Shown in pieces: positions 9,137 through 62,862 of a stretch of DNA of 64,000 bases. The translations under genes were made by a program, and so were the position numbers. Numbering within the stretch: the stretch's first letter is position 1; each line of letters begins with the position of its first letter. The stretch is taken from contig JAAOMT010000595.1 of assembly GCA_016748015.1 (NCBI GenBank), positions 128,282 to 192,281 of the forward strand. Reading direction: 5' to 3'. The stretch comes from Geosiphon pyriformis uo1 (taxonomy: Eukaryota > Fungi > Glomeromycota). The notes below the pieces were generated by a model that was not told where the DNA came from, did no database searches, and saw only the letters and a list, made by a program, of their open reading frames with translations.

Positions 9137-9139
9137 TAA

Positions 9140-9250
9140 AATTCGAATTTTTTCTCATGACGCGTTTAAAAAGATTGAATCACATGACGTAGCTAAGTCG
9201 ATTGGTTTGCATTGAAAAGTTTTTTTATCAAATCATTTACGCGTTTATGC
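9140..9250 (-). promoter_or_regulatory. Putative proximal promoter of the PPR gene
   Basis: CpG-retaining patch with ACGCGT twice (9160-9165, 9239-9244), CATGACG twice, and CCAAT on the minus strand (~9201). Confidence 0.35.
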
Positions 9251-16308: not shown

Positions 16309-17122
16309 TATTACAAATGATTATTTGGGGTCTCAAGTCAAATAACAAATCCGTAACTTGGTGCTTGGTTGGTATTCTGGTATTGATATCTGAAGGTTTT
16401 GTTATGGAGTTTTTTGTATAATAGACAAAAATTTAATAGTTGTTTTCAGTAGCCTTCCAGAATTACAATTCTGTCAAATTTCTTTCTCAGTGTAGTGACC
16501 AGTAATCCTCTTAGTAAGCTATCCTTAAATCTATGAGTGTTCTATCCTTGTTTTATGGTCTTTTACCAGTCCCTATGACATCTGTATCTCAGCACTTAAT
16601 CCTTAATTAATTTAGTAAAACCAAAGAAATAACAAAAGAAATAAAAGAAAATAAAAGAAAATAAAAAAATAAACAAAAGCAATTACAAGTTAGTATCCCA
16701 TCAATAGCCATGATCAAGAGTTATTGTTCCAGTGTGGTTAAGTATTAATTACTATTAACATAAAGTGTTGATAGTGGAAAGTGGATTTAAATGGTGAATA
16801 ATTTATTTATTTAATATTTGTGGATAGAAGATTTTTAACTCTCGAATTCTGCCCTTTCTACTTCTAATGCTATTGTTATATATACATAATTGATGTTCTA
16901 CGAGATTGCTCACATTCCCAAGTGATGTGCTATGATTTCTTAAGCAATGCTCACATTCCTGAGCAATATGCTATGATTTCTTAAGCAATGCTTACATTGT
17001 TGAGCAATGTGTTATGTTTTCTGACATTGCTCCATATTGCTGAGCAATGTGTTCACATGCTACATACTATTTGCTTATTGGTCTACTATTTCTCTATATT
17101 TGTTTTCTTTCTATGAGTAACA
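16309..17122 (-). repeat. 3' LTR, family A
   Basis: TATTAC...GTAACA ends, followed by a PPT. 16629-17122 matches 46676-47210. Confidence 0.9.
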
Positions 17123-17136: not shown

Positions 17137-17772
17137 TTAATATTGAGCTCCATCAAAATCTTCATTTTAAATTAGCTCCAATACTTCTTTTTCTAATATT
17201 GTTTGTTCGACTTTATTTTACATATCTTTTACTTGTATATTGTTCATTCTTCCCCATTAATTAATGGTTATGGTTTCTATGTCAAAGTGTAACAGTATTT
17301 CTGAGTAGTTCTGAAATATGTTGTGCAGTTGATAAATTGTTCTTACATGTAGTGTCGAGTTCATCTTTTTTCCAATAAATTCTTCAATTTACTGTATTAT
17401 GTTTTGGTTAAATATTCTCTTGGATTTGTTAATATACAACTCTTGAATATTCAACTTTTAATCTAACTGATAGTAACAGTATAATATTGGAAGTTGTTCT
17501 GTCCATTGCTTCTAATTCTCTTTTGTAAGTTCTTCTGTTAGTGCCATAATAGGTATTTTCCCAAAAGTGTTCTTTACTTTTTCTATTATATTATCTGACC
17601 AGTTTTTATCATTCTTTGGTGTTCACTGATATGGTGTTTTCTTTGTCTTTCTTTGGGTGTTTCAATAGCAAATTATTTATTTGTTAATAACAATTTTTAT
17701 GTCTAACTGTTGTTCACTTAAAGCCTAGAACAATTGTTGAGCTATAGTGTGGATATGATCTGGTATTTTCAT
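17137..17772 (-). pseudogene. Gypsy A ORF3 (unknown ~211 aa protein, ends DFDGAQY*)
   Basis: MKIPDHIHTIAQQLF..DIKIVIN start; homologous to ORF3 of B, C and E; span divisible by 3; internal stops are explicable by transitions. Confidence 0.7.
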
Positions 17773-24821: not shown

Positions 24822-25694
24822 TGTTACAGATGATTATTTCTGCTGTTGAATTAAATAACAAACCCATAACTTGGTGCTCCAAAGTTACTTCCGTGGATGA
24901 AGTTCTGCAAGTGTTGTATCTGAAGGTTTGATGGAGTCCTTTGTATAATGGACAGAAATTCAATAGTGTTGATAGTAGATGTATCTTTCCAAGAGTTTTC
25001 CCAATTTCTTTCTCAGCATGGTGGCCAGATTTAGTCTGGCAGTCGTGCCCTTCTGATAAGCTATCCGATAATATATAAAATCCTATCCTTATTTCTGGGT
25101 CTTTTACCAGGCTATCCTTGACGTCAATAACTCAGTGCTTAATCTTTTAATCAATTAGTATACAACAACAAAATAAAAAAGAAAGAAAATAAAATAAAGA
25201 AAATAAAGAAAATAAGCCAAAGCAATTTGGTACATTAGTATCTCATCAATAGCCATGATCAAAAGCTATTGTTCCAGTATGGTTAAGTATCAATTACTAT
25301 CAACATGAAGTGTTGATAGTAGAGAATGGGTTGAGATATGAAATAATTATTTATTTAATGATTGGAAACTGGAATGTTGCTTAGATTAAATTTAAACGAA
25401 GAGGTCTGTCTTTTCAGCTTCTAATCTTATTGCTATATATACATAATTGAGATTCCTCAATTCCTTAATTCTTTGCGACAAAAATTCTGGGATTTCTGGA
25501 ATTCTGCGATTCCTGATGAAAGGAATCCTGGAATTCTGGAATTCTGCAATTCCTCATTGGGGAATCCTGAAATTCCTGGAATCTTGCAATTCCTCTGAGA
25601 GGAATTCTGGAATTCCACATTTACTACGTCTACCTCTGATTGGCTAATATCTACTGACTAATAATACTATATTTTTTATATTCTATGAGTAACA
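24822..25694 (-). repeat. 3' LTR of element B
   Basis: TGTTAC...GTAACA; matches 34105-34311 plus 44483-45117. Confidence 0.93.
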
Positions 25695-25707: not shown

Positions 25708-26337
25708 TTAATATTGAGCTCCATTGAAATCTAATTCATTTACTTCTCTCTCTTGAAGTATTTTTTGAATTTCATTTTTGAGAATTACTTGTGTCATTTG
25801 AGTCCGTAATTCTTTAAATTGAGCATTGGTGATTTTTCCCAATTAATTACTGGTAACCGTATTTATTGCTTTGTTGAATAGAATTTCTGGTTGATCCTGA
25901 AATGCTGTGTGTATTTGGTATATAGCTCGAGCTTGTGTGGATAAGTTGTTTTTTCCCACAAAATGTTTTAATTGTTGTAATATTGTTGTGTTGAATAACT
26001 GCTTTGTTTTATCTGTATATAAGTTCTAGATATTTATGTATTGTCCCAAGTAAAAATAACAATAGTTTTTTGGAAATTGTTGTATCCACCAAGTCCAAGT
26101 TTCTCTGGTAAGTTTTTGGTGTAATCCGACTATTTGTTGTTCTTTCATGGCCAATTTTATCTTAGTTATGATTTTGTTGACTACATTTTCAAGTCTTTTC
26201 TGTGCTTTGTTTTGTGGTATCCTTGCCATATTTTTGTAACAAATGGTTTGTTGATTGATGGTAATTTTTATCTCTTGGTGTTGGATTAATTGAAAAATTT
26301 GTTAAACTAGTGAATGGATATTGTCCATAATCTCCAT
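25708..26337 (-). pseudogene. Gypsy B ORF3 (~209 aa, ends DFNGAQY*)
   Basis: MEIMDNIHSLV..EIKITINQQTICYKNMARIPQ..GKNNLSTQARAIYQIHTAF. 630 nt in one frame. Confidence 0.75.
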
Positions 26338-34311: not shown

Positions 34312-35375
34312 TATTACCTGAGTAAAAAAACCGATCCAAAGTTATAAAAAAATATGATCAAAACATAATATAACACAGAATAATACACAATAACATTGGA
34401 TAATGCATTATAATGTAGGATAACGTGTTATAATGCAGGATAACACAGAATAGTACGCAATAACATAGGATAATGTGTTATAACGCAGGATAACACAAAA
34501 TAACATGTAATAACATTAGATAACGTGTTATAACATAGGATAACTAGTGATAATGTAGAAAAATGAAGCAATAACAGAAACAACAAAGCAATAGTTAGTG
34601 ATAGTAAGACAATTGAAAGCAATCCTGTAAAACCAAAAGAATGTATAAAAGCAAGTAGTTGTAAAAGTGAGAAAAGACAGACAGATAGATATAAACCTTT
34701 AGACAAAAATTAAATATCCATACCCCTTTATCCTTTATTATCTTTCCTATTTCATCTCCTGAAATAAACCAATTATTAAAAAGAAATCAGAATCATGAAT
34801 TTATGTTCTCGAACTTCGTGAAATTTACGTGAATTAACCCTTGTCTCATACTTCCATTCTAGGACAGATGCTCTTAGCATAACCACCTCAAACTTATTAA
34901 CGATTTGGACCAATCACTCTTGATTACGGCAATTGACAATACTAATTTATCTTTTTTTTTTCTTTTTTTTTCTTTTTCTGTCTTATTTTTGTGAAGCAGC
35001 AACATAGTAAAATCGACTGTCTGAAAATAGACTTCATGATAGCCTGGTAAAAAAGGGAAGCTCCCCTTAAGTTTTGGATATTAACATTATCTTGTTAGCT
35101 TATCAGAAGGGCGAAAAGACAACACCAGACCCTAATGACTGCACTCATTAACTCAGAAAAGAAAGCTCACATTTACGAAAAATGTTACAATCGACGAAAG
35201 ACAAACTCTGTGCCTTATAACCAAAGAACTCAATGGGTAAATTCACATCCAGGAATAGACCTTCAAAGACTGATAATCAAGACTAAGCCAACAGAATTAC
35301 GCAGAAGATGCATCATCTATAATTGAGAGCACCAAACATTACCATTTCCCATACTCACCAAGTTTACCCATAACA
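34312..35375 (+). repeat. 5' LTR of element C
   Basis: Direct repeat of 43425-44478. Confidence 0.95.
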
Positions 35376-35437
35376 TTTGGTGCTTCCTGTGAGGTTATAA
35401 ATCCACAGAGACAGAGCACTTCCAAAAATACATAAAA

Positions 35438-38400
35438 GTGGCAACTATTGAAACAATAGGAAAGGACCACTCCTCGTACAGAAAAGCACTATTTTAATAC
35501 TTTTGAAAAAACCTAGGAATACCAGCAGAAATCACTTATGCAGAAAGTGATTTTTGTAACTATATCAACACAAAAATCAACTGCTTGTTAGGCTGCGCAA
35601 CTGATACAGGAAGACTTGGAGAACAAATCTATCAAAGCTTACTAGGGTACTCAACAGCCACAACTACCCGAGCAATTGCTGAAACTCTGTGTATAATCAA
35701 TACAGACATTAAATATTACATGGCACAATGATTTCCTCAAGTACAACAACCAGTAGAATCCGATCCTGAGAAATATAAAAACGAATCCAACAACTCTGTA
35801 ACTGCCCAAGCCAAGTCCACAGTCAACAAGAAACCAAGAGTCCTCTCCCCAACAACTCTATTATACTATCAGACACCCCAGAGTAGAATTGTATTCAACT
35901 CACCCCTGGAAACCCAGTCAGAAACACCACAAACTCCTAGAAATCCACACCCTTGGAATCAACACAGTTGGACCAAATCACTTGAAAAATATGGATTGCT
36001 GTTTAGAAATCTTACCCCAGCAGCTGGTCAAACAGAAGGAAACCCATCAACTTGAAAACAGTCACCAGCACAAAACCTAGCAAAATCAGCATCTCTTCTG
36101 ATAGAAGAAACAGCTATCTTACAACCAATTGGTTCAAGTGACAAAGGAAAGCAACCAGCATTAGCACCCAGAGAACACTCAAATATGCGGACACCAATCT
36201 CTTTAAACATAACCAGTAACACCCCACCCATTAACCAGATCATGGCTTACCAGGATATTGCTAAATTGGAAAAATTTTCTGGTGAAGAAAATAACACATA
36301 TTCTTGGATCATGGATGCCAAGAAAGCAATTACTGCTAATGGTTGGAACAATGACCACACAATTCAGGCACTGCTGTTCTTTCTATCCAGAACTGCCAAT
36401 TTATGGTAACAGAGCTTCGCAGAGAAGCCTACCTCCTTTACCGAGTTTAAACTTGCATTTCTGCAATACTTCTGTGACTCCAATACATTAATCTGATTGC
36501 AAAATCAATTCAGCATAATTAAACAAAAAGATCATGAAGCAATAACTACTTATTTCAGATGATTCAATCAAATTCTGTGTCAAATATTAGTTATTGAAAG
36601 AGACTACTACACTGTGGCGCAAGTTTTTAATCAATTCATTAAAGAATTGCAGAGTGGTATTCTAAGGTCCGTAAGACCCCACCATCTGACCAGTTTACAA
36701 GATGCCATCACTCTTGCTCACAATTTTGAGTCTGCAGAACAAGAAGCAAACCATACCCAAGCCATTAATTTAGCCATTAATGGAACCTCTGACATTGATG
36801 CAAAGATAACCCAATTGAGTGAGAAACTAACTTAGAAAATTGAGGGATTTTTAGCTGGAACTACAGGAACTTACCAACCACCCCAACGGAGAGAAAATAA
36901 TAACAACAGCAGATACTTACAGCAACAGAACTGTCAGCAACAGCAACAACCTTGGAGATCCAATCCTTGCAACTGTTACTACTGTCAGAAATCTGGACAC
37001 ATCACCCGTAACTGCAGAAGGAAGATTATGGACCAAAATCAAAGAAACCCATACCAGCAATCCAGATATTAGCAAAACATGGTACCCCAATATTCCATAC
37101 CTCAAAATCAACCGTTTCTATACACACAACAAGTCCCGTACACTCAACCACCACCCCAGAATTATTATCAACCACCACCAATAACACAAACAATCTCTCA
37201 CTATCAAACTTTCCCTTACAGCCCATCCAGACTTTGAGCTATAGACTATAATCAGGGATGAAAAAATCCCAACAACAATCAGGTACAAACCAATAGTGGA
37301 CTGTTTCGACCAATCCCTCACAGTCCTGCCCAATCTCGACCAACACCAACTGGATACCCAAATCAAGCTTCTTATCTCAGTCTTATGGAAGACCAAAGTT
37401 TTAATAAATCTACATCTGTGGAAGGAGAGGATATAGAATAAATCTCCCAACCTTCCAAGCAAACAAAAAGCAATATCCCACCAGCCATTATTACCAAAGA
37501 CACCATCCTAGCCACCATATTTCTTTTTGACATCAATAATTTAAACACCCATAGCCTTTTTAGTAGAACAGCCATCAATCAGGATAAACCAATAATGGCC
37601 CTATACACCGATGCCAGAGTCAGAGGAATAGACATTAAATTAATCCTGAATAGCAGATTAGCTGGTAGCATAATCACGAAGCAGCTCATGGACCAACTAG
37701 ATTGCTGAGTAGACTGTGCTGCTACCACCCGGATCATTACAGCGGATGGAAACACAAAAACCCCAATAAGAGAAATTGACAACTTCTCCTTCAAAATTAA
37801 TGGAATTCAAATCTCTACCAAAGTACTCATTATAAAAGCTATTCAATATCAAGCTTTAGTAGGAAACAATTGGTTGTCAAAAGCCAACGCTACTCTTGAC
37901 TGAAACACCCAAAAACTTCAATTCACGTTCCATGGACAGCATGTCCGAGTCCCAGCTACGTGCGGACACTTTAAAACCCAACGTACCAAGAAATCCCTTA
38001 TTGAATTCAAAGACACCAACCATCGAGACCTATTAGGTTTCATGGGCGGATAATTATCAAACTGAACTATCCCCACCATCAACCTGGGAAGAAAAAGGAA
38101 AAGACAGAGCTGAAGAAGAACCCCAATTGTCATTACTAGGATATGTAACCTCGGACCAAAGAAACTTATTTTACCAACCCCCAAGACTAATATGTGTTGA
38201 TTGTAGAAAAAAACTATCCACTATGAGCACATGTATTGGGGACAACAAAAAATGGCCCACCACCACCAAATACTATTGCAGACCTTGTTTACTGGAAAGA
38301 TTTGAATGACCAAAATGATGAGGCAAGTGAAACAACACACCATGTCTCACATGTGGTGAAATCCTGCCAGATAAAAGACTCTAGAATGATTTGCCTGGCA

Positions 38401-41216
38401 GAGGAGGAACATGCGACGAGGCTTGTCAATACACCATATTAATCAACGATTGGATACGAAAGGGAACTCCCATCGAAGACGCTTGGAAATGAGCCCTCAA
38501 CAGACTGGACGGTTATCCACATGATGACCACAAAATCTAGAGAATGGCAAGTGCCAAGGCCAAAGACACCATGCCCAAAGAAATATGAGAAATCAAGGAC
38601 AATCCTTGGACGTCCGAATATAATGGACCCGACTACCCTGAGGATGATTTCTTTACAGATGACTCAGACACATTTCAGAACCAATATCAGGAATTGGCCC
38701 CAACTTGCAAAGAACAGAAGCAAAGATTGGCCGATTTGAATACCAAACTGTGTGATCATTGTTTGATCCCTTATCACTTCCAGTACTGCGACGAATGTGA
38801 TCTCATGTTCAATCCACTTCCAAAAATACTGTTTCCAATTACTGAACTACCTGAGCCCGAAGAAGAGGTATTGATCACCGAGGACATGTTGTTTCAAGAT
38901 CCAACTGAGAATACTAAAACAGAACAGTATCTCGTGTATCCCGACCTATCCAAAGAACTAAAGCTAAAATAGTACAGTGATAACGAGAAAAGAATCTGCC
39001 CCAAAAGAGCACATGACACCAATGCTGGTTTTGATCTATGATATCTCGGACAATCATCCATCATTATAGCCCCACATTCTCTTGTAAAAATAGATCTTAA
39101 GATAGCATTAGAAATTTCTATTAGTACAATGATACAAGTTGCCTCTCGATCTAGTCTAGCCAAAAAAAGAATTGATGTAAAAGAAGGAATCATTGATGCC
39201 GATTACATGGAAAACATTATCATGATGTTACAGAACAATTCGAACAGACCCTACAAAATAGAATCACAAGAAAAAATTGCCCAAGCTATCTTCCTATTCC
39301 TAGTCAAAATACCCCAATTAACCCCAGTAACAACCTGAGAAGAGTTAGGCCTCACTGCCCAAAGAATTAACGGGTTTGGATCAAGTGAAAAAGGAAACGT
39401 ACCAGTTAATTTTATGAAGGAAGACAGTGACCAGGTAGAATTTATTAACACTGACACCGTCATCTCCATTCCCTCATACCAACAATACATCTTCAAGGTG
39501 AATTGAAAGATCCAAGATCAAGTCCTGTTATTCGAAGCCAGTCCTGAAATCTGTTCCCTAGCTGATGTTGCTAATCTATATCTACCGGCCAAAGCCCATA
39601 AACACTTCAAAATCCCCATCCACAACCTGACAGAAGATGTCATTGAAATCCCTGAAGGGACCCTCATTGGTTCTATATCCATAGATATTCAGAATCCTAA
39701 AAAACCCCAGTTCATTCCAGATTTCGCACAATTATTCTTATTCTGTGACATTACCTCACAAGTATAAAATTTGCTAAAAGAAAATTACTTGTTTACACCA
39801 AAAAAAATCAATAAATTGAATTTAGGAAATTTAAGTACCCTGCAACAAATGCAACTCAAAGTCCTTCTGAATCAGTATGCCGATGTCTTTGCCAGCGAAA
39901 ATGAGTTCAGATGCACTGACATTGTGAAGCATCAGATTGATACGAGAGATACTTGACCGATTAAGCAACAAGCTTACCATGTACCCCCATTTGGCTATAA
40001 CCTAATTAAGCAAGAAGTGCAACGGATGCTTGATAACAGCCTAATCAAAGAATCATTAAGCCCTTAGTTCTCTTCAGTAGTCTTGGTTACCAAGAAAAAC
40101 AGAAAAGTGTGATTCTGCATAGATTATCGAAAACTAAATAGTGTTATGTGAGGAAATAGTTATCTCACTCTCCTCATCCAGAAAATTCTAAACAATCTAG
40201 GGAAAAAGAAATGATTCTCGTCATTAGATTTAGCAAGTAGTTATTAACAAGTTGAAATAGACCCCAAAGACAAAGGAAAAACAGCATTTACCACTTGAGA
40301 TGGAAACTTCGAGTTTAACATAATGCCTTTTGGACTTTGTAATGCTCCTGCCATGTTTCAACATCTGATGGATGTAATATACAAAGAAATCCTTTGGAAA
40401 TCAGTAGTAGTCTACCTAGATGATACAAATGTGTTCTCCGAAACATTCGATGACCATCTGCTCCACCTACAACAAGTCTTCGAATGCCTTCGTAGTGCCG
40501 GATTGAAACTCAATCCCAAGAAGTGCTTCTTTGGAAAAACCAAGTTAAAATTCTTAGGACATGTAATCGGCAAGGACAGAGTTAAACCTGATCCAGATAA
40601 AGTACAAAAAGTCAAGAATTTTCCAGCTCCAATTAACCTCAGAGAATTACAAGAATTTCTAGAATTGGCAGAATATTATTGTTGATTTGTCAAAGATTTC
40701 TCGAACATCACAAAACTACTCCATTAATTGTTGTCCAAATACATATCGTACTTGTGGAAAAAAGATTAACAGAAAGCATTCGACTATCTCAAGCAGTGAT
40801 TAATCACATCCCCAATTCTAATTTACCCAGATTTTACTAAATGGTTCATTGTTACTACGGACGCCTCAAAAAATGCTCTAGGAGCAGTCTTATTACAGAT
40901 AGGACCGAACAATAGAGAACACCCAGTTGCCTACACTAGTCGCAGCACCAGCCCAGCAGAAAAAAATTACAGCACAACAGATCTGAAATGTCTCATCATT
41001 TATTGGGCCATACAAACTTGGAAACATTATCTTAGTTAACCATTTGACCTATATACCAATCATAAAGGACTTATTTGATTACTCAACAATCCACAACTAG
41101 AAGGAAAATATGCGAGATGGAGTACTTATCTGCAATAATTCCCATTCAAAGTCCATTACAAGGAAGAATCCAAGAACACCAATGCCAACAGTTTGTTGAA
41201 AATGCCACAAACCTAA
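35438..41216 (+). pseudogene. Gypsy C gag-pro-Cys-rich-dUTPase-RT-RNaseH
   Basis: GTG 35438 is in frame with capsid MAYQDIAK (36242). CYYCQKSGHITRNC, IKLILNS, AGFDL/RSSLA/IIDADY/IAQAI/GFGSS, MPFGLCNAPA, YLDD, TDAS. Confidence 0.92.
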
Positions 41217-41226
41217 TCCCAGACTC

Positions 41227-42594
41227 ATGAACACACTTACTTATCAACAACTATATCAGTACCTATCAACACTACGTTTCAAGGAGATATTATCTCAACA
41301 GGAACAAAGTACCATACAAAAACAAGCCCAAAATTATTTTATTCAAGACAACCAACTATATTGACGAGAACACCAAAACCACCCCAACCCACAACAACTA
41401 ATTAAGGACAGTGAAAGAGAAACTATACTATATAGCATGCACTCAGATCCGACTGCAGAACACTTTAACAAAGATGCTACCCTTGAAAGAACACTAAACT
41501 TATACTATTGGCCAACGATGTACAAAGACATTTTTGAATATGTGCTCAATTGTGACACATGCCAGCGAAGAGGAGGAACAAGATCAACAGAACCACTTCA
41601 ACTCATTCTAGTTGGAAATCCATTTGATAGAATTGGGATCGACTTGGTTGGACCTCTTTCAATTACATCCCAAAGAAATTGCTATATCACTGTAGCTGTA
41701 GACTATCTTACAAAATGGCCAGAAGCCAGAGCAATCTAAGTGGCTGATGCCAAAACAGTAGCCGAATTTGTGCATCAAGACTTAATTTGCCAACATGGAT
41801 GTCTGAAAGAATTATTATCTGATCAAGGAACACACTTCGTTAATAATACGTTGACTAAACTAAGTCCACGGTTTGGAATAAAGAGACTCTTATCGTCACT
41901 ATACCACCCACAAACAAACGGACTGGTAGAACAATTTAATAGAACACTGTGTAAAGCACTAACAAAAATAAGTCATGAAAACAAACAAGAATGAGACTTA
42001 TTCATATCTTCTGTACTCTTTGTATACCGAACATTGAAACAAAATATGACTCAGTTCACACTGTTCGAACTAGTCTATGGAAGAAAAGCTACGTTACCAA
42101 TTGAACAAGTGATACTGTCATACTCAACAGAAACAATCAATGAAGAGAATTTTGAAGCTACCTTACACCAAAAAACGTACCAGCTAATAAAAATGTTGAA
42201 AAACAATTGAAGAACAGCAGCTGACAATATTAGTCATGCTTAAGAATGACAAAAAGAAAAACATGATAAACACCTATCAGAACAACCAATGGAATTCAAG
42301 ATTGGAGACCAAGTACTGTTATATTGTACAAAAGCTGAGAAACAGTGGAGTGGAAAGTTTGACCCAAAGTGGAACGGTCTATTCTATATACATGAAGCAT
42401 TAGAAAATAGAGCTTACAAATTATGATTGGAAGACAGGATTTTAAAGAAAGTAGTGCATAGAAATCAGTTAAAAATTTATCATGAAAAACAGGAATCATT
42501 GTCATTAGTACCTCAACTAGAAACACAAATTTCATTAATTAGACCAGAAAATATACCACGAGATCTAAAACCAATTATCGTCATCAAAACATAG
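41227..42594 (+). pseudogene. Gypsy C integrase (stand-alone ORF2)
   Basis: MNTLTYQQL start, MHSDPTAEHF..CDTCQ, FDRIGIDLVGP, SDQGTHF, HPQTNGLVE. Confidence 0.9.
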
Positions 42595-42674
42595 ACAATG
42601 GGCAGCAAATTAAATTGGGGAATTCAAATATATATAACATCCAAAAAGCAGCAAGAAACGATAGAAATTTCAAC

Positions 42675-43409
42675 ATGGACCTTTCAGATCAAATTTTAAA
42701 ATTATCTAAACAATTATTTGAAACAATTCAAAAATTGACATCTCAAATAAAAATAACAATTGATAAAAAAGAGATATAGTACAAAGATAAGAGCAGGAGA
42801 GGAAAGAACAAGAGTTCAATTAGAACTAAATCCTCCCTCCCCTACCTACCACCCGAAAGGCAATGTTGGAGAAAAAATTGCCTTCAGGTGGGAGGTGGAA
42901 AAGAAGGAGGCAAAGAATGAGAAAAAAGTTACAAAAGAAGATACTTGGTCCTTGAACTTGAAGAAATAAAAAAAGCTTTAGCTTGTGGGACCAAACTTCC
43001 CGAAACAGGGGAGTGAACACCTGACAACACTCAGGAATGAAAAGAAAGACTTCTCTCAGCTTATTGGTTCTACAAAATTGGAGAACAGCTTGACTTAAAA
43101 ACACCATATGAAGACCTCAGCCAGAAAATGTTTAACAAAGAAGCAATACAACAAGTAGAAAAATTCATAGGGAAAAACAACCTGACCCTACATTACAAAG
43201 CAGCATACTGACTATACATTATCTTCCAACATTGCCCAAATGTGCTACTGAATGGATCTATGAAAACCATAATGGTTAACAACATAGAATGAATAACCAA
43301 TCAACAATTCAAAGACCTACAAAAAGCAATACTCAAGGCAACAATCAAACATTACATAAACAAAGCCACAATAACAGATACATACAGTTTCGCAGGAGCT
43401 CAATTTTAA
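42675..43409 (+). pseudogene. Gypsy C ORF3 (~244 aa, ends SFAGAQF*)
   Basis: MDLSDQILKLSKQLF..QIKITID..GKNNLTLHYKAAY.LYIIF. 735 nt in one frame. Confidence 0.75.
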
Positions 43410-43424
43410 AAAAGAGAGGGATAA

Positions 43425-44478
43425 TGTTACCCAAGTAGAAAAACCGATCCAAAGTTATGAAAAAACATGACCAAAATGTGACATAACACAGAATAATGCA
43501 CAATAACATTGAATAATGCATTATAACATAGGATAACATGTTATAATGCAGGATAACACAGAATAGCACGCAATAATATAGGATAATGTGTTATAATGCA
43601 GGATAATACAGAATAACATGTAATAACATCAGATAATGTATTATAACATAGGATAACTAGCGATAATGTAGAAAAACAAAGTAATAACAGAAACAACAAA
43701 GCAATAGCTAATGATAGCAAGACAATTGAAAACAATCCTGTAAAACCAAAAAAATGTATAAAAGCAAGTAGTTGTAGAAGTAAGAAAAGACAGACAGATA
43801 GATACAAACCTCTAGACAAGAATTAAATATCCATACCTCTTCATCCTTTATTATCTTCCCTATTTCATCTCCTGAAATAAACCAATTATTAAAAAGAAAT
43901 CAGAATCACAAATTTATGTTTTCGAACTTTGTGGAATTTACATGAATTAACCTTTGTCTCGTATTTCCGTTCTAGGACAGATGCTCTTAGCATAACCACC
44001 TCAAACCTATTAACAATTTGGACCAATCACTCTTGATCATGGCAATTGACAATACTAATTTTTCTTTTTTTTTTCTTTTTCTGTCTTATTTTTGTGGAGT
44101 GGCAACATAGTAAAATTGACTGTCTAGGAATAGACTTTGTGATAGCTTGATAAAAGAGGGAAGTTTTCCCTAAGTTTTGGATATTAACATTATCTTGTTA
44201 GCTTACCAGAAGGGTGAAAAGACAATCCCAGACTCTAACAACTGCGCTCGTTAGCTTGGAAAAGAAAGCTCATATTTACAAAAAATGTTGCAATTGACGA
44301 AAGACAAACTCTGTGCCTTATAACCAAAAAACTTAATGGATAAATTTACATCCAGGAATAGATTTTCAGAGACTGATAATCAAGACTAAGCCAACAGAAT
44401 TACACAAAAGACACATCATCCATAATTGAGAGCACCAAACATTACTATTTCCCATACCCACTAAGTTTACTCATAACA
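43425..44478 (+). repeat. 3' LTR of element C
   Basis: TGTTAC...ATAACA, preceded by the PPT. Confidence 0.95.
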
Positions 44479-45117
44479 CCGGATTTAGTCTGGCAGTTGT
44501 GTCCTTCTGGTAAGCTATCCGATAATATATAAAATCCTACTCTTATTTCTGGATCTTTTACCAGGCTATCCTTGACGTCAATAACTCAGTGCTTAATCTT
44601 TTAATCAATTAGTATACAACAACAAAATAAAAAAGAAAGAAAATAAAATAAAGAAAATAGAGAAAATAAGCCAAGGTAATTTAGTACGTTAGTATCTTGT
44701 CAATAGCCATAATCAAGAGTTATCAACATGAAATGTTGATAGTAGAGAGTGGGTTGAGATATGAAATAATTATTTATTTAATGATTGGGAACTGGAATAT
44801 TGCTTAGATTAAATCTAAACGGAGAGGTCTATCTTTTTAGCTTCTAATTCTACTGCTATATATACATAATTGAGATTTCTCAATTCCTCAATTCTTTGTG
44901 ACAGAAATCCTGGGATTCTTGAAATCCTGCAATTTCTGATGAGAGGAATCCTGGAATTCTGGAATCCTGCAATTCCTTATCAAGGAATTCTGAAATTCCT
45001 GGAATCTTGCAATTCCTCTGAAAGGAATTCTGGAATTCCACATTTACTACATCTACTTCTGATTGGCTAATATCTACTGACTAATAATACTATATTTCTT
45101 ATATTCTATAAGTAACA

Positions 45118-45743
45118 ATGGCTCCAAAATCTGGCTGATGAGGCAGTGATTGGAATCCTGATGGTGTTGGTGATCTCGATTTAAATCCTTCAAAATAATT
45201 GCTGTATGCTCTTAATAGTTTGTTTTTTTTTTGTTTACTCTGAAACATGATTCTTGCTAGTGGCGTCTTTGTACTGGTAGACACGTCTGCTGATGTGATG
45301 TTAATGGTACTTCTGGGCATGTAATGATATAATGGGTATATCGGAGATTCAATTCTTTGTTTCTTCCAGTTAGGAATTTGTATTCTTTTGGGTGTTACTG
45401 CTGGTGTCTGTAGTTTTTCTTTGCCTTTGTTCTGGTAAGTAATAGGGAATGTTCTTTGTGTATATTTTTCAATTTCTTGGTTGATTTCTCTGATGATGGG
45501 TGCAAAGCTGTGATTTGTGGATAAGTTGGTGTGTTGGATTAGTTCCAAATAGAAATTTTCTCTTGCTGATTTAATATCAACTGGTCTTCTTAGGAAATCT
45601 GTGATTCTTTTATTGATGTAGAAGTTGAAAGCTAATTCTGCTAAGTAATGGTTGTTGTTTAGGCCTAGCTGTTGGCTGTACTGTTGAAATAAAGATTTTG
45701 TGAATCCTAGATAGTTTGTTCCTATTATTTCTGATTCTGCCAT
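45118..45743 (-). pseudogene. N-terminal gag extension of element A/D
   Basis: Homologous to B 33467-34042. In frame with the capsid Met at 24483 once B is removed (960 nt). Confidence 0.88.
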
Positions 45744-45805
45744 TTTTGGTTTGGTGTTGTCAGTGCTGGTTCTCTGTAGGATTATACTTCACAGGGAGCA
45801 CCAAA

Positions 45806-46675
45806 TGTTATAGTTGAATTATTTGGAGTCTCAAGTCAAATAACAAACCTGTAACTTGGTGCTCAAAAGCTATTTCTGTCAATGATATTCTGAAAGTGTT
45901 ATATCTGAAGATTTTGATGGAGTCCTTTGTATAATAAACAGAGATTTGATAGTATGGCAATTTGTTGTTTGTTGTTAGTTGTTTTCCAATTTCTTTCTCA
46001 GTTTGGTGGCCAGATTTATTCTGGCAGTTGTGCCCTTCTGGTAAGCTAACTGATAATATATATAAATCTACCCTTATTTTTGGGTCTTTTACCAGACTAT
46101 CTGTGATGTTAATAACTCAGTACTTTTAATCCCCAATCAATTAGTAGGCACAACAGAATCAAAGAAAGAAAGAAATAAAATAAAAATAATAATGATGATG
46201 AAGATAAGCCAAGACAATTTGGTAAGTTAGTATCTCGTCAATAGCAATGATCAAGAGCTATTGTTTTAGCGTGGTTAAGTATCAATTACTATCAACATGA
46301 AGTGTTGATAGTGGAGAATAGATTGAGATATAAAATAATTATTTATTTGATAATTGGAAGTTGGAAGATTGCTTAGATTAATCTACACTAAAAGGTCTGT
46401 CTTTTCAGCTTCTAATTCTGCTGCTATATATACATAATTGAGATTCCTCAATTCCTTGATTCTTCACAACAAGAATCCTGGAATTCCTGAAATCCTGTGA
46501 TTCCTTTGAGAAAAATTCTGGAATTCTGGAATCCTGTGATTTCTCGTCAGGGAATCCTGAAATTCTTGGAATCCTGCAATTCCTGAAAGGAATCCTGGAA
46601 TTTTACATTTATTATGCCTACTTCTAATTGGCTACTACTCATGCTAATATATTTCTTATATTTCTATAAGTAACA
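45806..46675 (-). repeat. 5' LTR, family D (B-like U3), with no partner LTR in the window
   Basis: TGTTAT...GTAACA, adjacent to a PBS. Carries a GGAAT(T/C)C array, unlike LTR-A. Confidence 0.88.
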
Positions 46676-47210
46676 ATAACAAAAAAAAATAAAATAAAAT
46701 AAAATAAAATAAAAAAATAAATAAAAGCAATTACAAGTTAGTATTCCATCAATAGCTGTAATCAAGAGTTATTGTTCCAGTGTGATTAAGTATTAATTAT
46801 TATCAACATAAATTGTTGATAGTGGAGAGTGGATTTGGATGGTGAATGATTTATTTATTTAATATTTGTGAATGGAAGATTTCTAACTCTCAGATTCTGC
46901 TCTTTCTATTTCTAATGATATTGCTATATATACATAATTAATGTTTTATGAGATTGTTCACATTCTCGAGCGATGTGCTATAATTTCTTAAGCAATGCTC
47001 ACATTGCTGAGCAATGTGCCCTAATTTTCTAATATTGCTTCATATTGCTGAGCAATGTGCCATGTTTTCTGATATTGCTCCACATTGCTGAGCAATGTGC
47101 TGTGTTTTCTGACATTGCTCCATATTGCTGAGCAATGTGCTTATGTGCTACATACTATTTACTTATTGGTCTACTATTTCCCTATATCTGTTTTCTTTCT
47201 ATGAATAATA
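46676..47210 (-). repeat. Truncated 5' LTR of family A (U3/R side only)
   Basis: Matches 16629-17122, including the 40-bp palindromic array; followed by TSD TCAG. Confidence 0.88.
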
Positions 47211-48789
47211 TCAGACATCTCACTAATACTAGCATCTTTGCTTTTTATTTCACTACTCTAAGACATCTTGCATTTTAAACTGCTAGTATACAGAATGCCA
47301 TCAAAAATAGAACCAGTTGATGAATCTACCATACCACCAGGAATTCCAGAATTTTTAGACTTTTTGTACAAAGAGCCATGAGAGTATATGCTTTTAATGT
47401 GTGTCTTTTTCTTATTACTAGACCAGGTCCCCAATTCAGCCAAAATAAAACTAGACCCACTAACAGATAAGCTCACCAGTTTTATCACAACAAAAGAAAG
47501 AAAGTCAGAAGAAATAATTAGAAAAAAAACTAAGAAAAAAGGGAAAAAATAAATTAAATTTTGACAAAATTTTGCTCTTGTCATGGTTTGGAGATTGACA
47601 AGAGAAAAACGTTTTTTTTATAAAATTTTTTAATAAAATACAATAATAATTAAAATAAAAAGTATATTTATTTATAATTTATCTGTTTTTTATTTAATAT
47701 TATTTTATTTTAAAATAATTTTAAGTTAAATTTGCTAGCAAATTATATATTTAATAAATTAAACAAAACAAATTATTAAGAATAAAAACCAAAAATAATT
47801 TTTATATTTTAAATATATATAAAGATAATATTTAAAAGTTTTTTATTATTATTATTTTAATAAAATACAATTCAATTATTATTTAATATAATATAACTTA
47901 AAAAATTCTAAATTAAATACAATCTATGTATTTATTATATATAATTAACTATTAAAATATTAATTAAGTTAAATTAAAAAATGTTAAAAATAAATTTAAC
48001 TTATTAAGTTTAATAATAAAAACATTTAAATTTCAAATATTAAAAATAATTTAATTTAAAAACAATTTAATCTTTTCAATATTATATTTAATATCAAAAT
48101 AATTTATTTTCAAAGTATTAATAAATGTTTAATAGTATTTTTACTTAAAAAAAATATCTTAATAATATTTATTTTATTATTATTTATATAATTAAAATCT
48201 ATTTTAGTTTTAAGATTAGTAAAGTTTTTAAATAAATTAATATTAATAAAATTATTAATAAAATTATTTATAATAACTAATTTTTATATTTTAAAATTAT
48301 TATATGTATTTTTAATTAAAAAAAAACCAAAGTAATTAAAAACTAATTAGTTTAACAACAGACTTAATTAATACAGCCAAATTAAGAATTTAAAATTTTA
48401 AAGAATTTAATTTAAAGTTAATCATAAGATTAACAATAATAATAATAAAAACAACCAAAGATACAATAATAATAAAAATTAATACTAACAAAAAAATCAA
48501 AAATTTTAAAGTTATTTACAAATTTAAACAAAAACTTAAAAAACAAAAACAAAAAATTTTTACAATATTTAATTAAATAATCTAAATCTTAATATTTATA
48601 ATAATAATAATATTTAAAAGTTTTATATTAATATAAAATATTAATTTTTAAAATTATAAAATTTAAAATCTCTAAAAACTTAAAAATTATAACAACAAAA
48701 TATTAACAATAATAATAATTAGAAAAATAAATAATAAAACAAATTTAACTATTAACTTAAAAAATAAAATTACTAATTTTAAAAATTAT

Positions 48790-49615
48790 TATTACAAAAA
48801 AATTTCTTTTTTTTTTGTTATTATTAATATTATTTTGTTGTTAATTTTGCTGTTAATAAAAACAAATAAACTTTCAATAAACTAATTTATTTTCCAAAAT
48901 ATTTTGGATTATATATATTATTGAGCTTATAATAAAATAGCCAATTTTGTATTATTTTTATGTAATTATTTTACAGTAAAAGTCAACTTTTTTATGGAAA
49001 TTTTTTATTTATAAGTTTTTTAAAAATATGTAGTTATTTTGTTATAAAAATAAATTTTTTTATAATTACAAATTATCTAATAATATAAAAATATAAAAAA
49101 AAAGATTACAATAAATTAAAAAAATAATAACAAAATGTGTTTAATAAAATTATTTCTAATTTAAACTTAAAAATATTAATAGTTATTTAAATTAATAGCT
49201 AATTAATTTCAAAAATATTAATTTAAACTTTATGATTTTAAAACAATAATAATTTGAAATTTGAAATTTTTAAAATAAATTTTATTTAAATAGATTTGTA
49301 ATGGTTTTTTAATTTAAATTTAATTTTATAAAAAATAATTCTAATTAAGATAAAAAATACATTTTTTCAAAGAAAAAAACTTTTTTTATATAATATATTA
49401 TAATCTGATTTTATAATTTAATAGTTATTTTTCTAATATTTTAGTAAATTAAATATATATTTTATAAAACTACAAGTTATTTTAGTAAATTGTTAAATAT
49501 TTTATTAAATTTAAATATTTTAACAAATTTTTAAATATTATATATTTTGGTATATTATATAATTTAATTATTATAATTAATTATATTTATATTTTGTATA
49601 AATTAAATTATTAAA
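48790..49615 (-). mobile_element. Highly decayed E-related LTR relic (approximate limits)
   Basis: GAGCTTATAATAAAATAGCCAATT, GTAAAAGTCAACTT and 49530-49615 align to LTR-E after C>T/G>A conversion. Confidence 0.55.
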
Positions 49616-50809
49616 TCTTTTTCTTCTATGTTTAAAATTTTCCAAAGAGTATATTTTAAGAAAAAAATTTTTGTTTTATACTTTATAATTTTCCAAAAAA
49701 CTAATCTATTTACTATTAAATTGGCTATTATTATAAGTAGTTTTACAACTAAAAAAAGGTTTTTCAAAGTTTTGATTTTAAGTTTAGTTAGTAAAAACTT
49801 AATTTAAAAAGCATCTTTTGGCAAAGTTAAACATTTGAGTAATAAAACAGATTTGAGTTTTGGTGAGTTAAAATACATTATTGATTAGTTTGCTAGAATA
49901 AATACAGATAAAAATACATTTAAGGTAATCTCTTTAAATAATAATAATAGTTATAAAGCAAGTGATAAAAATAAAACACAATTTAATTCTAAAATAAATA
50001 CTTTTAAAGCCAAATAAATTTATATTGGTGCTGTTTTTAGTTTTCTAATCAGTTTTATTAACTATAATATAGATAATAATAAGATTTTTCTCTCTTTTTG
50101 TCTCTTTATTTCTCTTGACAAGAAATAAATTGACTTAAAAAATATTAAAACTTAGATAAAAATACTTGTAAAAAAATTTTTTGATTTGAATATTAATTTT
50201 TTAGCAGTAGATAACAAATTAGCAATGACAAAAACTTAAATTATTAAGAAAATTTTTTCAAAAGTTAATAGTTTTAGAAGAGCTATTATCTTCTCAAAAT
50301 TTTAAAAAATTATTAAATTAATATTTACATTTAAGAAAAATTTGAATAAAATTGCATTATTAACTGAAAAAAATAAAATCAAAATAAACAGTAATCTTAA
50401 GAAACAAAAAATGTATTCAAATTGGGCTGTGATAATTAAAAAAATTCTTATAAATATGTCAAAAAAAATGATTATTGTCACAATAACTAAATTTAGATAA
50501 ATTGTGTTAATTTAATTACAATTAATTGAATTGTAATAGAAAACTGTAATAGAGTTTACTAAATTGAGTTAAGCTAATTAGTTAGTATCAAAATAGTTAT
50601 TTTTAATAAAAAAAAACTCAGTACACATAACTAAGACTGTTAAAAATTATAATACATAAATGTTTAAAAATTAATTAAGATGTTTTTGTTTATTTTGCCA
50701 ATAGAAACAACTGTTTATAATCTTGGTATTTTGTTAAAAAAAACTGGTTAAAAAACTTTTATTATTAATTATTTATTTGAAATTGGTAATAAAGTTCATT
50801 ATATTGTGG

Positions 50810-51793
50810 TGTTATCGGAGGTTTTTGGTCTCTTTTCTTAATTGTTGTTGATGCCTGTTTGCTGTGAATTCACGTTTTCTGAATGTGGTTGAACCTCCAG
50901 TAACTGAATTTATCTTCAAATTATCTTCTATAATTTGAACTGCTGGGCTTATAAGTGGAATGGCCAATTTCTTGCCAGTTACTTTATGTAGTTACATTGT
51001 AGTAAACGTTAACTCTTTCCCAAGAATTGCTCGTCCAAAAGCTCACTAAAAATGTGTAGTTACTTTGCTGTGAAAGTCAACTCTTCTATAAGAATCTCGT
51101 CTGTAGGCTACCCTAATGATTGTAATCAGAAAATAAAAAAAGTATAAAAAAAATGTAAAAGAAATAGAATTCTGTCGAGGGAAATGTTTTCTATCCAGGC
51201 CTGGAGTCACTAACAGTTTACTGAAATTGGTAGCTAATCAATTTCAAAATGTTAGTTGGGTTTTTGGGGATTTTCCAAGTACAATAATTAAAGAATTTGG
51301 TTTTTTGAATTATTTGATATTTATTTCTTTTTGTGTGTATAGGAACGGTTTTAAGAGATAAATCTAAAGTAAGATATATTTTCTTGAAAAGAGAAGCTCT
51401 TCTTTTATACAACTTGTCATAACACTATTCTATGTACTTGAACTTTGCTATTTTCTATAATTTCACTGAACTAAAGATACATTTCGGCGAACTACAAGTT
51501 ATTTCTGCGAACAATTAGATATTTTGGCAAATTATCAATTATTTCGGCAAATTTCTTACAAATTTTGGCAAACTTTTTGAATGTTACATAGTTCGGGGTA
51601 TTGCATAATTGATCATCACAATTAGGTTACATTTGTGTTATGTACAAATTGGGTTATTAATTAAATGATAATTTTGGATATATTTTGCTAATGTAATAAG
51701 TAATAATTTGAAATGATAATATATGCTAATTAATGATAAGATTTATAAGGGTAATTTCATGCTAAACAATATCTCTAATTTCATCTGGTAACA
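50810..51793 (-). repeat. 3' LTR of element E
   Basis: Direct repeat of 59691-60653. Confidence 0.95.
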
Positions 51794-51804
51794 TAACCTC
51801 CTCC

Positions 51805-52481
51805 TTAAGACTGAGCTCCATCGAAGTCCAAGTACTGTCTGTAATTTCCAGATAATAATCCAAAATTATTGAAGAAATTTGGTCTGAAAATTGTTGAAAT
51901 TTCAGTTCTGTGAGCTTTCTGATGTATTGAATCTTCAAAGGTTGTAAAATTGGGTTTTGTAGGACGTTTTCACAGGTGTAGAATAGGTCATAAAGTCTAA
52001 GAGCAGCTCTTAGTTTATAGTGACTGTTTGTAGGTTCAGCTGTTGTTTTGAATTCATTGTGGAGTTGTTTTTGAATAGCTTTTTTTGTGAGGTTTGCTGC
52101 TGTAAGCTCTCATTTTCATTCGTGAAGTGTTTTTCCAATGTAGAAATATCTATATATTGGAGTATAGTTATGGTTTTCTTCATTAAGACACAGTTGAAGT
52201 TTTTGTTAAATAGTAGCATTTGGTGGAATACTAATAGGAGTGAACATTAAATTTTCTCTTAAAGCAAACTTTAAAAGTTCTGGCAGGTGAATTCCAGAAT
52301 AACTTCTTGTGTTCTTCTTATATGGGTAATATTTTCGTGAATTTGGGGCTAAATTTGTGACTACTTCTGTTTGGATATAATTAATGTGGTTTCCAGTAAC
52401 AGTAATAGATAATTCGGGTATTGTTTTTAAAGCTAACATTAGTTTTTGGGATAATTGTTGAATGTTTTGAGAAATAGTCAT
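51805..52481 (-). pseudogene. Gypsy E ORF3 (frameshifted, ends DFDGAQS*)
   Basis: MTISQNIQQLSQKLM..LSITVTGNHINY; C-terminal RAALRLYDLF..IRKLTELKFQQF. Confidence 0.7.
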
Positions 52482-59690: not shown

Positions 59691-60653
59691 TGTTACCGGA
59701 GGTTTTTGGTCTCTTTTCTTAATTGTTGTTGATGCCTGTTTGCTGTGAATTCACGTTTTCTGGATGTGGTTGAACCTCCAGTAACTGAATTTATCTTCAA
59801 ATTATCTTTTATAATTTGAACTGCTGGGCTTATAAGTGGAATGGCCAATTCCTTGCCAGTTACTTTATGTAGTTACGTTGTAGTAAACATCAACTCTTTC
59901 CCAGGAATTGCTCATCCAGAAGCTCACTAAAAATGTGTAGTTACTTTGCTGTGAAAGTCAACTCTTCTACAGGAATCTCGTCTGTAGACTACCCTAATGA
60001 TTGTAATCAGAAAATAAAAAAAGTATAAAAGAAATGTAAAAGAAATAGAATTCTGTTGAGAGAAACGTTTTCTATCTAGGTCTGAAGTCACTAACAGTTT
60101 ACTGAAATTGGTAGCTAATCAATTTCGAAATGTTAGTTGGGTTTTTGGGGATTTTCCAAGTACAATAATTAAAAAATTTGGTTTTTCGAATTATTTGATA
60201 TTTATTTCTTTTTGTGTGTATAGGAACGGTTTTAAGAGATAAATCTAAAGTAAGATATATTTTTTCAAAGAGAGAAGCTCTTCTTTTATACAACTTGTCA
60301 TAACACTATTCTATGAACTTGAACTTTGCTATTTTCTATAATTTTGCTGAACTTAAGATACATTTTGGCAAACTACAAGTTATTTCTACGAACTATTAGA
60401 TATTTTGGCAAACTATCAATTATTTTGGCAAACTTTTTGAATGTTACATAGTTCGGGGTATTGCATGATTGATCATTGCAATTAGGTTACATTTGTGTTA
60501 TGTACAAATTGGGTTATTAATTAAATGATAATTTCAGATATATTTTGCTAATGTAATAAGTGATAATTTGAAACAATAATATATGCTAATTAATGATAAG
60601 ATTTATAAGGGTAATTTTATGCTAAACAATATCTCTAATTTCGTCTGGTAACA
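59691..60653 (-). repeat. 5' LTR of element E
   Basis: TGTTAC...GTAACA adjacent to the PBS. Confidence 0.95.
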
Positions 60654-60930
60654 GTGGTTAAATTTGAGTTAGAAAAAAACTTGAAAACTGTTTTTTGTAC
60701 TGAACTGATTTTTGAAAGTGTAAAATTTTTTTGGACCAATTAAGTTTAATTTGTTGTAAAAAATGTGGGTGTTTCGAACATTTTTTTCTTAAATGTAACT
60801 TCTTAAATTCAGCTGTTCCAGTATTGAAAAAAATTTATAAAAAATTTATTTCAGATAAAAATTGTTTTTAACTGGCTCATTTCAATACAAAAAAAAATGT
60901 TTTTATTTTTTATTTAGCTAATTTTAGTAA

Positions 60931-61589
60931 TATTACTTAAGTAAAAAAACCAATCCAAAAAATATTAAAAAACTATAATTAAGAAATGTAATAACTTAAA
61001 AAAATGTAATAATACAGAATAATACATTATAACTTAAAATAATATAAAATAATATACAATAACATAAAATAGTACAAAATAACTAGTTATAATATAAAAT
61101 AATTAGTTATAGTGTAAAAAAACAAAGCAATAACAGAAATAATAAGCAATAATTAGTAATAATAAATGATTAAAAAGTAGTTTTAACAGAATAGAAAAGA
61201 ATAGACAAAGAAACAAAATAGAAAATATATTTTTTTACTCATATCTATTAGATTTACTTTATTTATATATCTATATTATTTTAAATAAAAAAAATATTCA
61301 AAACTCCAAACTTATTTGAATTAATTGTTTTCTTATTTTCATTTTTAGCCAAATATTCTTAGCATAAAATGTCTCAAACAATAACAACTTGGGTTAATCA
61401 CTCTTAATTACAGCAATTGACAATATTATTTTATTTTATTTTTTATTTTTATTTTATTTTATTTTTTATATTTTTTTATAAAGTGGCAATATTGTAAAAT
61501 TGACTGTGTGGAAATAAACTTCATGATAATCTGGTAAAAAAAAAATTCTTTTAGAATTGGATATTAACATTATTTTATTAGTTTATTAG
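60931..61589 (+). mobile_element. Decayed, truncated C-family LTR
   Basis: Aligns to 34312-35107 (10-bp array, GCAATTGACAATA, CTGGTAAAA); cut by the LTR at 61590. Confidence 0.8.
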
Positions 61590-62862
61590 TATTACTTATA
61601 GAAATCAAGAATTATAATAATAGATAAAATAACTAATTAGAAATAGGTGTAATAAAAAAAAATTGCAGGATTTCAGAATTACAGAATTTTAGAATTCTTT
61701 TTTAGAAATTGTAGGATTCCAAAATTCCAGAATTCTAAGATTTTTTTTTAAAAATTTTATTTAACATAAATTATATATATATAGTAAGAGTATTAGAAAC
61801 AGAAAAAGTATTAATAGAGTTCAGATTGGTTCAGAACAATATTACTCTTCCAATTAAAAAATAGTTTTTTATAACTTGAAGTGAAATTATACTTATATTA
61901 TAATTACTTGATTAAATAAATATTAATCACTTTTACACTATTAACATTCTATGTTGATAAAATTCAATACTTAACTACATTAGACTAATAGCTTTTGATT
62001 ATACCTATTAACTAAATACTAATATCTTAGTTTTTTTTTTTTTTTTTTTTGTTGTTTACTAATTGATTAAAGAGATTAAGTGCTAAGTATTTGACATTAA
62101 GAATAGTTTGATAAAAAACTTGAAAACAAAGTAAAAATTTAAAGATAGCTTATCAAAAAGGCATAACTGCCAGAATAAATCAGCCACTATGCTGAAAAAA
62201 AAATTTACAAAAAAAACCATCAATTGAATCTCTGTTTATTATACAAAAAACTCAAACAAAACCTTCAGATCATAAAAATCTTCAGAAATTATTAATATTT
62301 TCAGCTATTAAGCACCAAGTTATGGGTTTGTTATTTGTTTCAACATCCAAATAATTATTTGTAATATTTAGTACTCTCTGTAAAATATAATTTAACAAAA
62401 AACCAGCACCAACAGCAATTATCTAAAAAAATAGCAGAATTAGAAATAACAGAAATAAACCATTTAGAATTTGTTAAATTCTTATTTCAATATTATCAAA
62501 CTTATCTTGGACTAACAAATAATTATTGACCAGCAGAATCAGTTTTCAATTTTTATGTTAACAAAAAAATTAAATCTTACTTAGAAAACCAAGAAGATCC
62601 AAAAGCTGTTCTCAAAAATTTCTACAGTAAATTACTCCAAAGCATCATGCTTTTACAAAATTATATGTTTGCCCCACTAATTACAGAGATAAATCAAAAA
62701 ATTAAGAATTACACCCAACAAAAATTTTTTATTACCTTTGTAAATAAAGAGAAATTACAAATTCCAGCAGAAATACCAAGAAAAATACAACTACTTACTT
62801 GAAAGAAACCAAGAGTTGTTTTATTTATTCACTTGTTATATCATCATATATTAGAAAGTACT
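61590..62862 (+). mobile_element. Truncated Gypsy G: 5' LTR (61590-62366), decayed PBS, and start of gag extension (~62431-62860)
   Basis: Reverse complement of B/D-type LTR. TTTAGTACTCTCTG is a decayed PBS. IAELEITEINHLEFVKFLFQYY..AESVFNFYVN. Confidence 0.85.

Follow-up and report, generated by a model that had tools for sequence, protein, structure and literature searches.

An accessory reading frame between integrase and the 3' LTR of Ty3/gypsy elements in Geosiphon pyriformis

The decayed Ty3/gypsy elements in a 64,000-nt stretch of Geosiphon pyriformis uo1 DNA (hereafter the window) carry a gene behind integrase, here designated ORF3. It is a real gene, an undescribed accessory gene of a known sort (an extra ORF behind pol), and its conservation at the protein level spans at least five families plus distant metagenomic homologs. 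We tentatively read ORF3 as a selected accessory gene whose protein may act as a family-specific, LTR-binding activator or anti-silencing factor (probability about 0.35). A short sequence beside the polypurine tract (PPT), GGAGCTCA, is very probably a separate cis signal.

Results

The window is AT-rich, CpG-depleted (CpG O/E 0.30) and dense with nested LTR elements; according to the accessible text of PMC11952901, LTR sequence makes up 41.2% of the Geosiphon genome. Four decayed Ty3/gypsy elements (A, B, C and E) show the layout gag-PR-dUTPase-RT-RH-INT, and the element copies in the window are dead. Pfam searches found the gypsy gene order gag-PR-RT-RNase H-integrase in C and E, with a protease match in E only, and a dUTPase in both in addition to gag, RT, RNase H and integrase. 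The Ty3/Gypsy hallmarks of paired TG..CA LTRs, PBS, PPT and target-site duplication are present. The 5' LTR of C (34312..35375, + strand) is followed by a PBS-like TGGTGC at 35378 and by gag-pol (35376..42594, +), which comprises Retrotrans_gag, a protease region, a Cys-rich stretch, dUTPase, RT, RNase H and an integrase (H2C2, rve) with SH3_Tf2-1 as its C-terminal domain (Pfam). Beyond ORF3 lie the PPT (43408..43424, +, recognised from its sequence) and the 3' LTR (43425..44478, +), and the flanks of the element are CTGG/CCGG. The two LTRs of C are 90.1% identical, transitions accounting for 102 of their 104 differences, and the LTR pair of E is 95.5% identical.

The elements are nested at three levels over 16311-47211, with C inside the 5' LTR of B (34308/44479) and B interrupting the gag of a further element, made up of a 5' part at 45118-46675 and of A as its remainder. 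Element A has a B-like gag-pol and a B-type 5' LTR, but an A-type ORF3 and 3' LTR; it looks chimeric and may be a dead chimera. A PBS-like TGGTGCT(C/T)CCTGTGA lies just 3' of the 5' LTRs at 35378, 34102 (-) and 45803 (-).

ORF3 is an ATG-started frame behind integrase, of 211, 209, 244 and 239 codons in A, B, C and E, respectively. In C it occupies 42675..43409 (+; 244 aa) and contains six internal decay stops; P0110 is an intact relative (193/244 residues identical). The remaining copies are on the minus strand, at 17137..17772 in A (211 aa, ten internal stops), 25708..26337 in B (209 aa, three stops) and 51762..52481 in E (239 aa, three stops). An initial annotation, made from the window's letters, had proposed a conserved ORF of 209-244 aa after integrase in these four elements, and the comparisons bear this out. 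In-frame local alignment scores (A-B 368, A-C 219, B-C 219, C-E 90, B-E 74, A-E 59) exceeded the best of 200 shuffles (54-63) in 6/6 pairs, A-E by a narrow margin, and were above both other sense frames in every pair. The span given there for C (42675..43421) holds for the ORF itself but not for its end, which is at 43409; position 43421 is already within the PPT. The internal stops, attributed there to decay, mostly coincide with Q, W or R in intact relatives (in A, 6 of 10 checkable), in agreement with that view.

The dN/dS ratio, proposed at the outset as a check on the gene, was 0.25-0.60 for ORF3 in all six pairs of window copies and 0.09-0.24 for integrase in five of six computable pairs; these values are rough because dS is near saturation and the alignments were protein-guided. 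The copy-level DNA analysis covered the window and contigs. A contig of the X2 run differs from E ORF3 at 50 positions, and 13 of the 17 differences listed fall at third codon positions (P=3.4e-4). These codon substitution patterns demonstrate purifying selection on ORF3. Within family C, variation across 1160 contigs consists almost entirely of transitions, many of them at adjacent C/G pairs, a pattern that methylation decay would leave in dead copies. The reading of the stretch as non-coding, or as an Env remnant, kept only for its cis signals is largely refuted and very improbable. All four window copies are indeed broken, CpG decay makes up most of the within-family variation, and a search of sequencing runs listed no RNA run that carries ORF3, but codon-position bias, dN/dS below 1, the existence of full-length open copies and protein similarity across DNA that cannot be aligned all argue against it. 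An Env remnant is further contradicted by the absence of a hydrophobic segment: no TM helix was detected in any of 14 proteins (top 19-residue Kyte-Doolittle means 0.27-1.29), which upholds the original statement that the product is not Env. Between A and B, dS was 1.7 for ORF3 and 0.5 for integrase; taken with the B-like pol and A-type ORF3 and LTR of element A, this indicates that ORF3 follows the LTR end and not pol, with the reservation that A may be a dead chimera.

A common protein end, FxGAQx*, had also been claimed. The endings DFDGAQY* (A), DFNGAQY* (B) and SFAGAQF* (C), with TAA at the edge of the PPT, were confirmed, but DFDGAQS* in E is off-frame. The E ORF3 reads, without a frameshift, ..TWTSMELSL.EEVMLPDEIRDI across GGAGCTCA, the PPT and 32 nt of the LTR (start 51793), so FxGAQx is not a common feature of the protein. 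Intact E-type proteins share this read-through end (at least 24 full-length ones among the 120 matches listed), as do the metagenomic homologs P0191 and P0200, which suggests that these two also probably precede a PPT and an LTR. Over the 35 nt immediately preceding the motif, the listed X2 differences occupy third positions in 7/9 cases for the read-through frame and 0/9 for the GAQ frame. A GAQ-type end is present in 71 of 263 fetched proteins and the read-through end in 40; the other 152, for the most part truncated or fused gene models, have neither. In trees built from 26 and 17 selected proteins, the GAQ-ending families lie on one side of a branch with 99-100% support, so that a single frame change is enough to account for the two ends; the root is not firmly placed (the alternative to ancestral read-through has support 54/62), and the label of one family, F, was assigned tentatively on the basis of a spliced gene model.

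The sequence GGAGCTCA occurs four times in the window, against about one expected, and each copy starts 26-30 nt before an LTR start: at 43395..43402 in C (+, 5' of the PPT), 17144-17151 in A (LTR start 17122), 25715-25722 in B (LTR start 25694) and 51812-51819 in E. It is invariant in all four copies, including third codon and fourfold-degenerate positions. The initial annotation had suggested looking for synonymous variation as the mark of a peptide; none was seen, and the motif is read in two frames, which points to a cis element by the PPT. It likely helps to define or process the plus-strand primer. In Ty1 and retroviruses, according to the accessible part of bioRxiv 2022.12.06.519325, plus-strand priming is affected by short motifs lying 5' of the PPT. 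The U-box/T-box and TCTT motifs of Ty1, Tf1-like elements and retroviruses are likewise short conserved sequences directly 5' of the PPT, and E carries GGAGCTCAG-TCTT-AAGG; unlike them, the conserved block described here is longer (GGAGCTCA-N-T-N-TTA) and lies within a coding frame, and its role is putative. The result defines a PPT-adjacent cis motif that was retained through a change of reading frame. A conserved RNA hairpin at GGAGCTCA was considered and rejected, the four copies folding differently.

Database searches returned a small family, known so far from G. pyriformis and environmental sequence. With the B ORF3 as query, 102 of 145 candidates matched, all of them G. pyriformis hypothetical proteins; a profile search gave 410 matches among 4169 candidates, and the 120 matches listed were again all G. 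pyriformis hypothetical proteins. Full-length open relatives exist for B (P0004), for C (P0110) and for E (at least 24 proteins of 238-245 aa, in clusters of up to 11 members among the 120 matches listed), while the best open relative of the A type is a 136-aa part (P0170). A profile search of 1.84 billion representatives yielded 127 matches at E<=0.001. Ten of these were looked up: four are from G. pyriformis and six are ENA/JGI metagenomic proteins (E 2e-25 to 1e-3), and none of the ten is named from Rhizophagus or Gigaspora. ORF3 may resemble a helical domain common in hypothetical proteins of those two genera. The six ENA/JGI proteins and one cluster mate, used as queries in turn, gave 6 matches among 4594 candidates. 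A further Geosiphon ORF3 family, F (P0165, P0166, P0198, P0201), and an E2 subfamily (P0158, P0173) are absent from the window. Viral contigs searched with P0004 and P0191 contained no relative. Two candidates were discarded: the one locus among 289 pattern matches in metagenome contigs, a 38-residue match that proved spurious on reading, and the single phage tblastn match (E 0.4), which is antisense to annotated genes. No description of the family was found in the literature examined, which did not extend to most subscription papers, supplements or Repbase, and an earlier annotation is possible; the accessible part of PMC10886601 has nothing on it.

The protein is predicted to have two modules. 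In the full AlphaFold model an N-terminal helix and beta-hairpin (pLDDT 60-70) are joined by a disordered linker, variable among members, to a C-terminal helical core (pLDDT 85-95); the core modelled alone reached pLDDT 87.9 and pTM 0.75 and ends in a long helix. The best-conserved columns are Y110, G116, L119, N152, R162, F167, L174, G188 and I202, among which no acidic or His catalytic cluster was seen. The pI is 9.3-9.7 for the Geosiphon B- and C-type proteins and 5.1-5.9 for P0191, P0200 and P0260. As the initial annotation had it, the protein is not a chromodomain (no chromo HMM match after integrase, and a helical model), and it has no clear match to a known retroelement domain in Pfam, the PDB or viral folds. 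No Pfam family reaches its cut-off for ORF3. Foldseek gave 0 matches at E<=0.001 for the full model in PDB and BFVD and for the core in BFVD. VIA-align of the core (the N-terminal module was outside this search) gave no Z>=8 among 48,161 chains or 199 Foldseek candidates, which implies neither a new fold nor the absence of a helix-turn-helix (HTH); the best score for a solved HTH was to Orc6 (Z 5.9, rmsd 3.5, 72 aligned), and the match lists were filled by the long C-terminal helix. The best PDB sequence match, importin-5 (E 0.013), was dismissed as a chance helical likeness. In PHROGs, phrog_23683 (unknown function) was matched by 9/34 members, all E-type (best E 8e-5), and the ESM Atlas gave no usable match with whole P0004.

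One resemblance recurred. Pfam DUF1016_N (PF17761) was matched by 2/29 members (E 0.12 and 0.037), the match at E 0.12 scoring 12.9 bits, compared with a gathering score of 32.8. In the ESM Atlas it had a feature score of 0.89 (rank 15), and the neighbours were small bacterial and phage proteins (0.94, 0.91). Comparison by hhalign with 12 fetched DUF1016 N-termini gave P 0.005-0.019 (probability 2-7%); two of the alignments had P 0.012 and 0.005 (probability 3.7% and 7.1%), and block shuffles reached the real score in 0/627 and 0/582 cases for these two and in 8/150 for a core-only alignment. All three methods place the likeness in one register, with N152, R162 and G188-K189, on or after the third core helix, aligned to conserved DUF1016_N positions. 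According to the accessible text of PMC1189080, DUF1016_N is a helical domain of unknown function preceding a nuclease. The N-terminus of E. coli YhcG is colinear with ORF3 in its Y-x-x-IG helix, second helix, G-K/x-x-N turn, R..Y..F helix and GK-L/I motif. Unlike DUF1016_N proteins, ORF3 is far under the Pfam cut-off, has an extra N-terminal helix-hairpin module and a eukaryotic retroelement setting, and lacks the nuclease domain: no PD-(D/E)XK match, as in YhcG, was found by Pfam, and the protein ends after the long helix. The resemblance is weak and repeated, and is suggestive of kinship rather than proof of it.

Upstream of ORF3, elements A, B and C carry TATATA(A) at a distance of 40-46 nt from the ATG, such sites having a background frequency of 0.64 per kb in internal regions; in E no TATA match was found within 130 nt of the ORF3 ATG. 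The TATA-like box of C (42629..42637, +) is 44-46 nt before its ATG and is a candidate internal promoter. Downstream, a U3 tandem array unrelated to those of the other families lies just above the TATA box of each LTR family. The C-type array (43493-43657, +), within the 3' LTR, has 10/20/50-bp periods. The A-type array (16907..17051, -; second copy 46953-47141) has a 40-41-bp unit with an 8+3+8 palindrome, the B-type array (25483..25616, -; also 44906-45039 and 46471-46602) a 40-bp unit of 8-bp GGAATTCC-like subunits, and the E-type array (60362..60434, -; also ~51480-51575) a 20-bp period. The top periods are 40-41 bp in A, 39-40 and 8 bp in B and D, 50/20/10 bp in C and 20 bp in E; those of 20, 40-41 and 50 bp are multiples of the helical turn, and some arrays are palindromic. 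Array similarity scores were 17-41 across families and 237-243 within them. The U3 motifs of B, C and E had no match near their own ORF3 start, and the A pattern matched the second A-type LTR only.

Discussion

Extra ORFs after pol have been described in fungal, plant and rotifer elements, most of them without known function, in the accessible parts of PMC2864245, PMC7264820 and PMC5408684, and a dUTPase between PR and RT is reported for Postia PosPlaTy3-5 (PMC2864245) and for rotifer elements (PMC5408684), within the same limits. ORF3 occupies the slot, and has the orientation, of the additional sense ORFs between pol and the 3' LTR that, as far as those texts extend, are reviewed in PMC7264820 and exemplified by the fungal 'add. 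ORF' (PMC2864245) and rotifer ORF3s (PMC5408684). It differs from them in having no TM segment, GDSL or DEDDy enzyme domain or Pfam family at cut-off, and in overlapping the PPT and, in one clade, the LTR.

If ORF3 encodes an LTR-binding factor, as we tentatively favour, the scheme would be as follows. A downstream ORF needs its own message, which the predicted promoter at the internal TATA behind integrase would supply; the protein, non-enzymatic and DNA-binding, would bind the U3 tandem repeats of its own family, and such binding would turn the element on or protect it against silencing by methylation. Of the candidates named by the initial annotation (transactivator, silencing suppressor, integrase cofactor), a transactivator or anti-silencer would best fit the anatomy, and none is demonstrated. 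The decay of copies by transitions and the CpG depletion of the window were counted in favour of anti-silencing. Against an activator stand the weakness of the DUF1016_N match and the acidity of several homologs, and against a feedback loop of the foamy virus Tas type the absence of each family's U3 motif from the surroundings of its internal TATA. Since ORF3 adjoins U3, the two are co-inherited under any function of ORF3. LTRs commonly contain tandem U3 enhancers to which host factors bind, and such factors, instead of ORF3, could be the binders of the U3 arrays.

Two known systems offer partial parallels. VANC proteins bind to motifs that are tandemly arrayed in the transposon encoding them (PMC5735166, accessible part). 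The VANC system of Arabidopsis VANDAL elements likewise combines an accessory protein, fast-diverging families, family-specific non-coding tandem arrays and a methylated host, but VANDALs are DNA transposons, binding and demethylation have been demonstrated for VANC and are candidate properties only for ORF3, and no sequence relation between the two proteins was seen. Foamy virus Tas (Bel1), which binds the LTR and an internal promoter according to the accessible parts of PMC4929722 and PMC8670036, is likewise the product of a small 3'-end gene beside U3 with an internal promoter (inferred here); unlike the Tas system, the present elements have no U3 motif at the internal TATA and no env, and no homology was found.

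Other functions must be weighed against this reading. ORF3 could be a particle or pre-integration-complex factor that binds cDNA, PPT-near RNA or integrase and aids reverse transcription, nuclear entry or target choice, replacing the missing chromodomain. We consider this unlikely: its position directly behind an integrase without a chromodomain, a helical core that would fit nucleic-acid binding, and its overlap with the PPT signal are in its favour, but ORF3 is not fused to integrase, starts at an ATG of its own downstream of a TATA-like box, and shows much greater divergence than integrase between A and B. An adaptor working by protein-protein contact on a host target (a restriction factor, the proteasome, nuclear import, or competition among the nuclei of the coenocyte), with no nucleic-acid binding and a DUF1016_N likeness due to chance, would suit the all-helical core with its long C-terminal helix, the varying charge of the homologs and the faintness of the DUF1016_N signal; the register shared by N152, R162 and G188-K189 speaks against chance, and this too is an unlikely explanation. 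Slightly more doubtful is a post-transcriptional regulator, which would either bind RNA and suppress RNAi or serve in the export or translation of element RNA. By analogy, small accessory ORFs at this place are often regulatory (PMC7264820, accessible part), an ESM Atlas row names a phage translation repressor (0.87), and the Geosiphon B- and C-type proteins are basic, but Pfam matched no RNA-binding family, the Atlas row is under 0.9 and so a lead only, and a regulator of this kind leaves the divergence of ORF3 in step with LTR type unexplained.

A more specific form of the activator or anti-silencing reading, which we regard as improbable, is that a bacterial or phage DUF1016_N-like DNA-binding domain was captured and became a family-specific anti-silencing factor co-evolving with the arrays of its own LTR. 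Such a history would amount to VANC-like counter-defence in a retrotransposon, and would help to explain how LTR elements, in the face of heavy CpG methylation, came to occupy ~41% of the Geosiphon genome. LTR binding alone, if true, would establish a sequence-specific activator or anti-silencer in LTR retrotransposons and supply the first function of a DUF1016_N-like fold. ORF3 is unusually tractable: the protein is small and soluble, its model is good, and numerous natural copies are intact in three families or more. Every family also has its own candidate DNA target, which makes a test of cognate versus non-cognate binding direct. Hundreds of G. pyriformis 'hypothetical proteins' can be re-labelled as retrotransposon cargo.

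Other features of the window

The Pol proteins of all four elements contain a Cys-rich stretch of ~300 aa between protease and dUTPase (~38000-38950, +, in C; ~56550-57250, -, in E). It includes several CxxC pairs, had no Pfam match at E<=0.01 and is a possible undescribed zinc-binding domain. Between dUTPase and RT lies a stretch of ~200 aa (~39400-40000, +, in C and 55321-56031, -, in E) with no good Pfam match, the E copy weakly matching Spuma_A9PTase (E 1e-4); it may represent another dUTPase- or protease-like fold that has decayed. Blocks of 11-20% GC at 1-4000, 47600-50000 and 60900-62400 still align to LTRs and are very old LTR copies that lost C and G. Several open stretches of 200-290 aa at 10406-15946 (-) resemble a decayed non-LTR (LINE) element. 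An intact open frame of 725 aa at 6977-9154 (-) has many PPR repeats and is likely a host mitochondrial RNA-binding protein.
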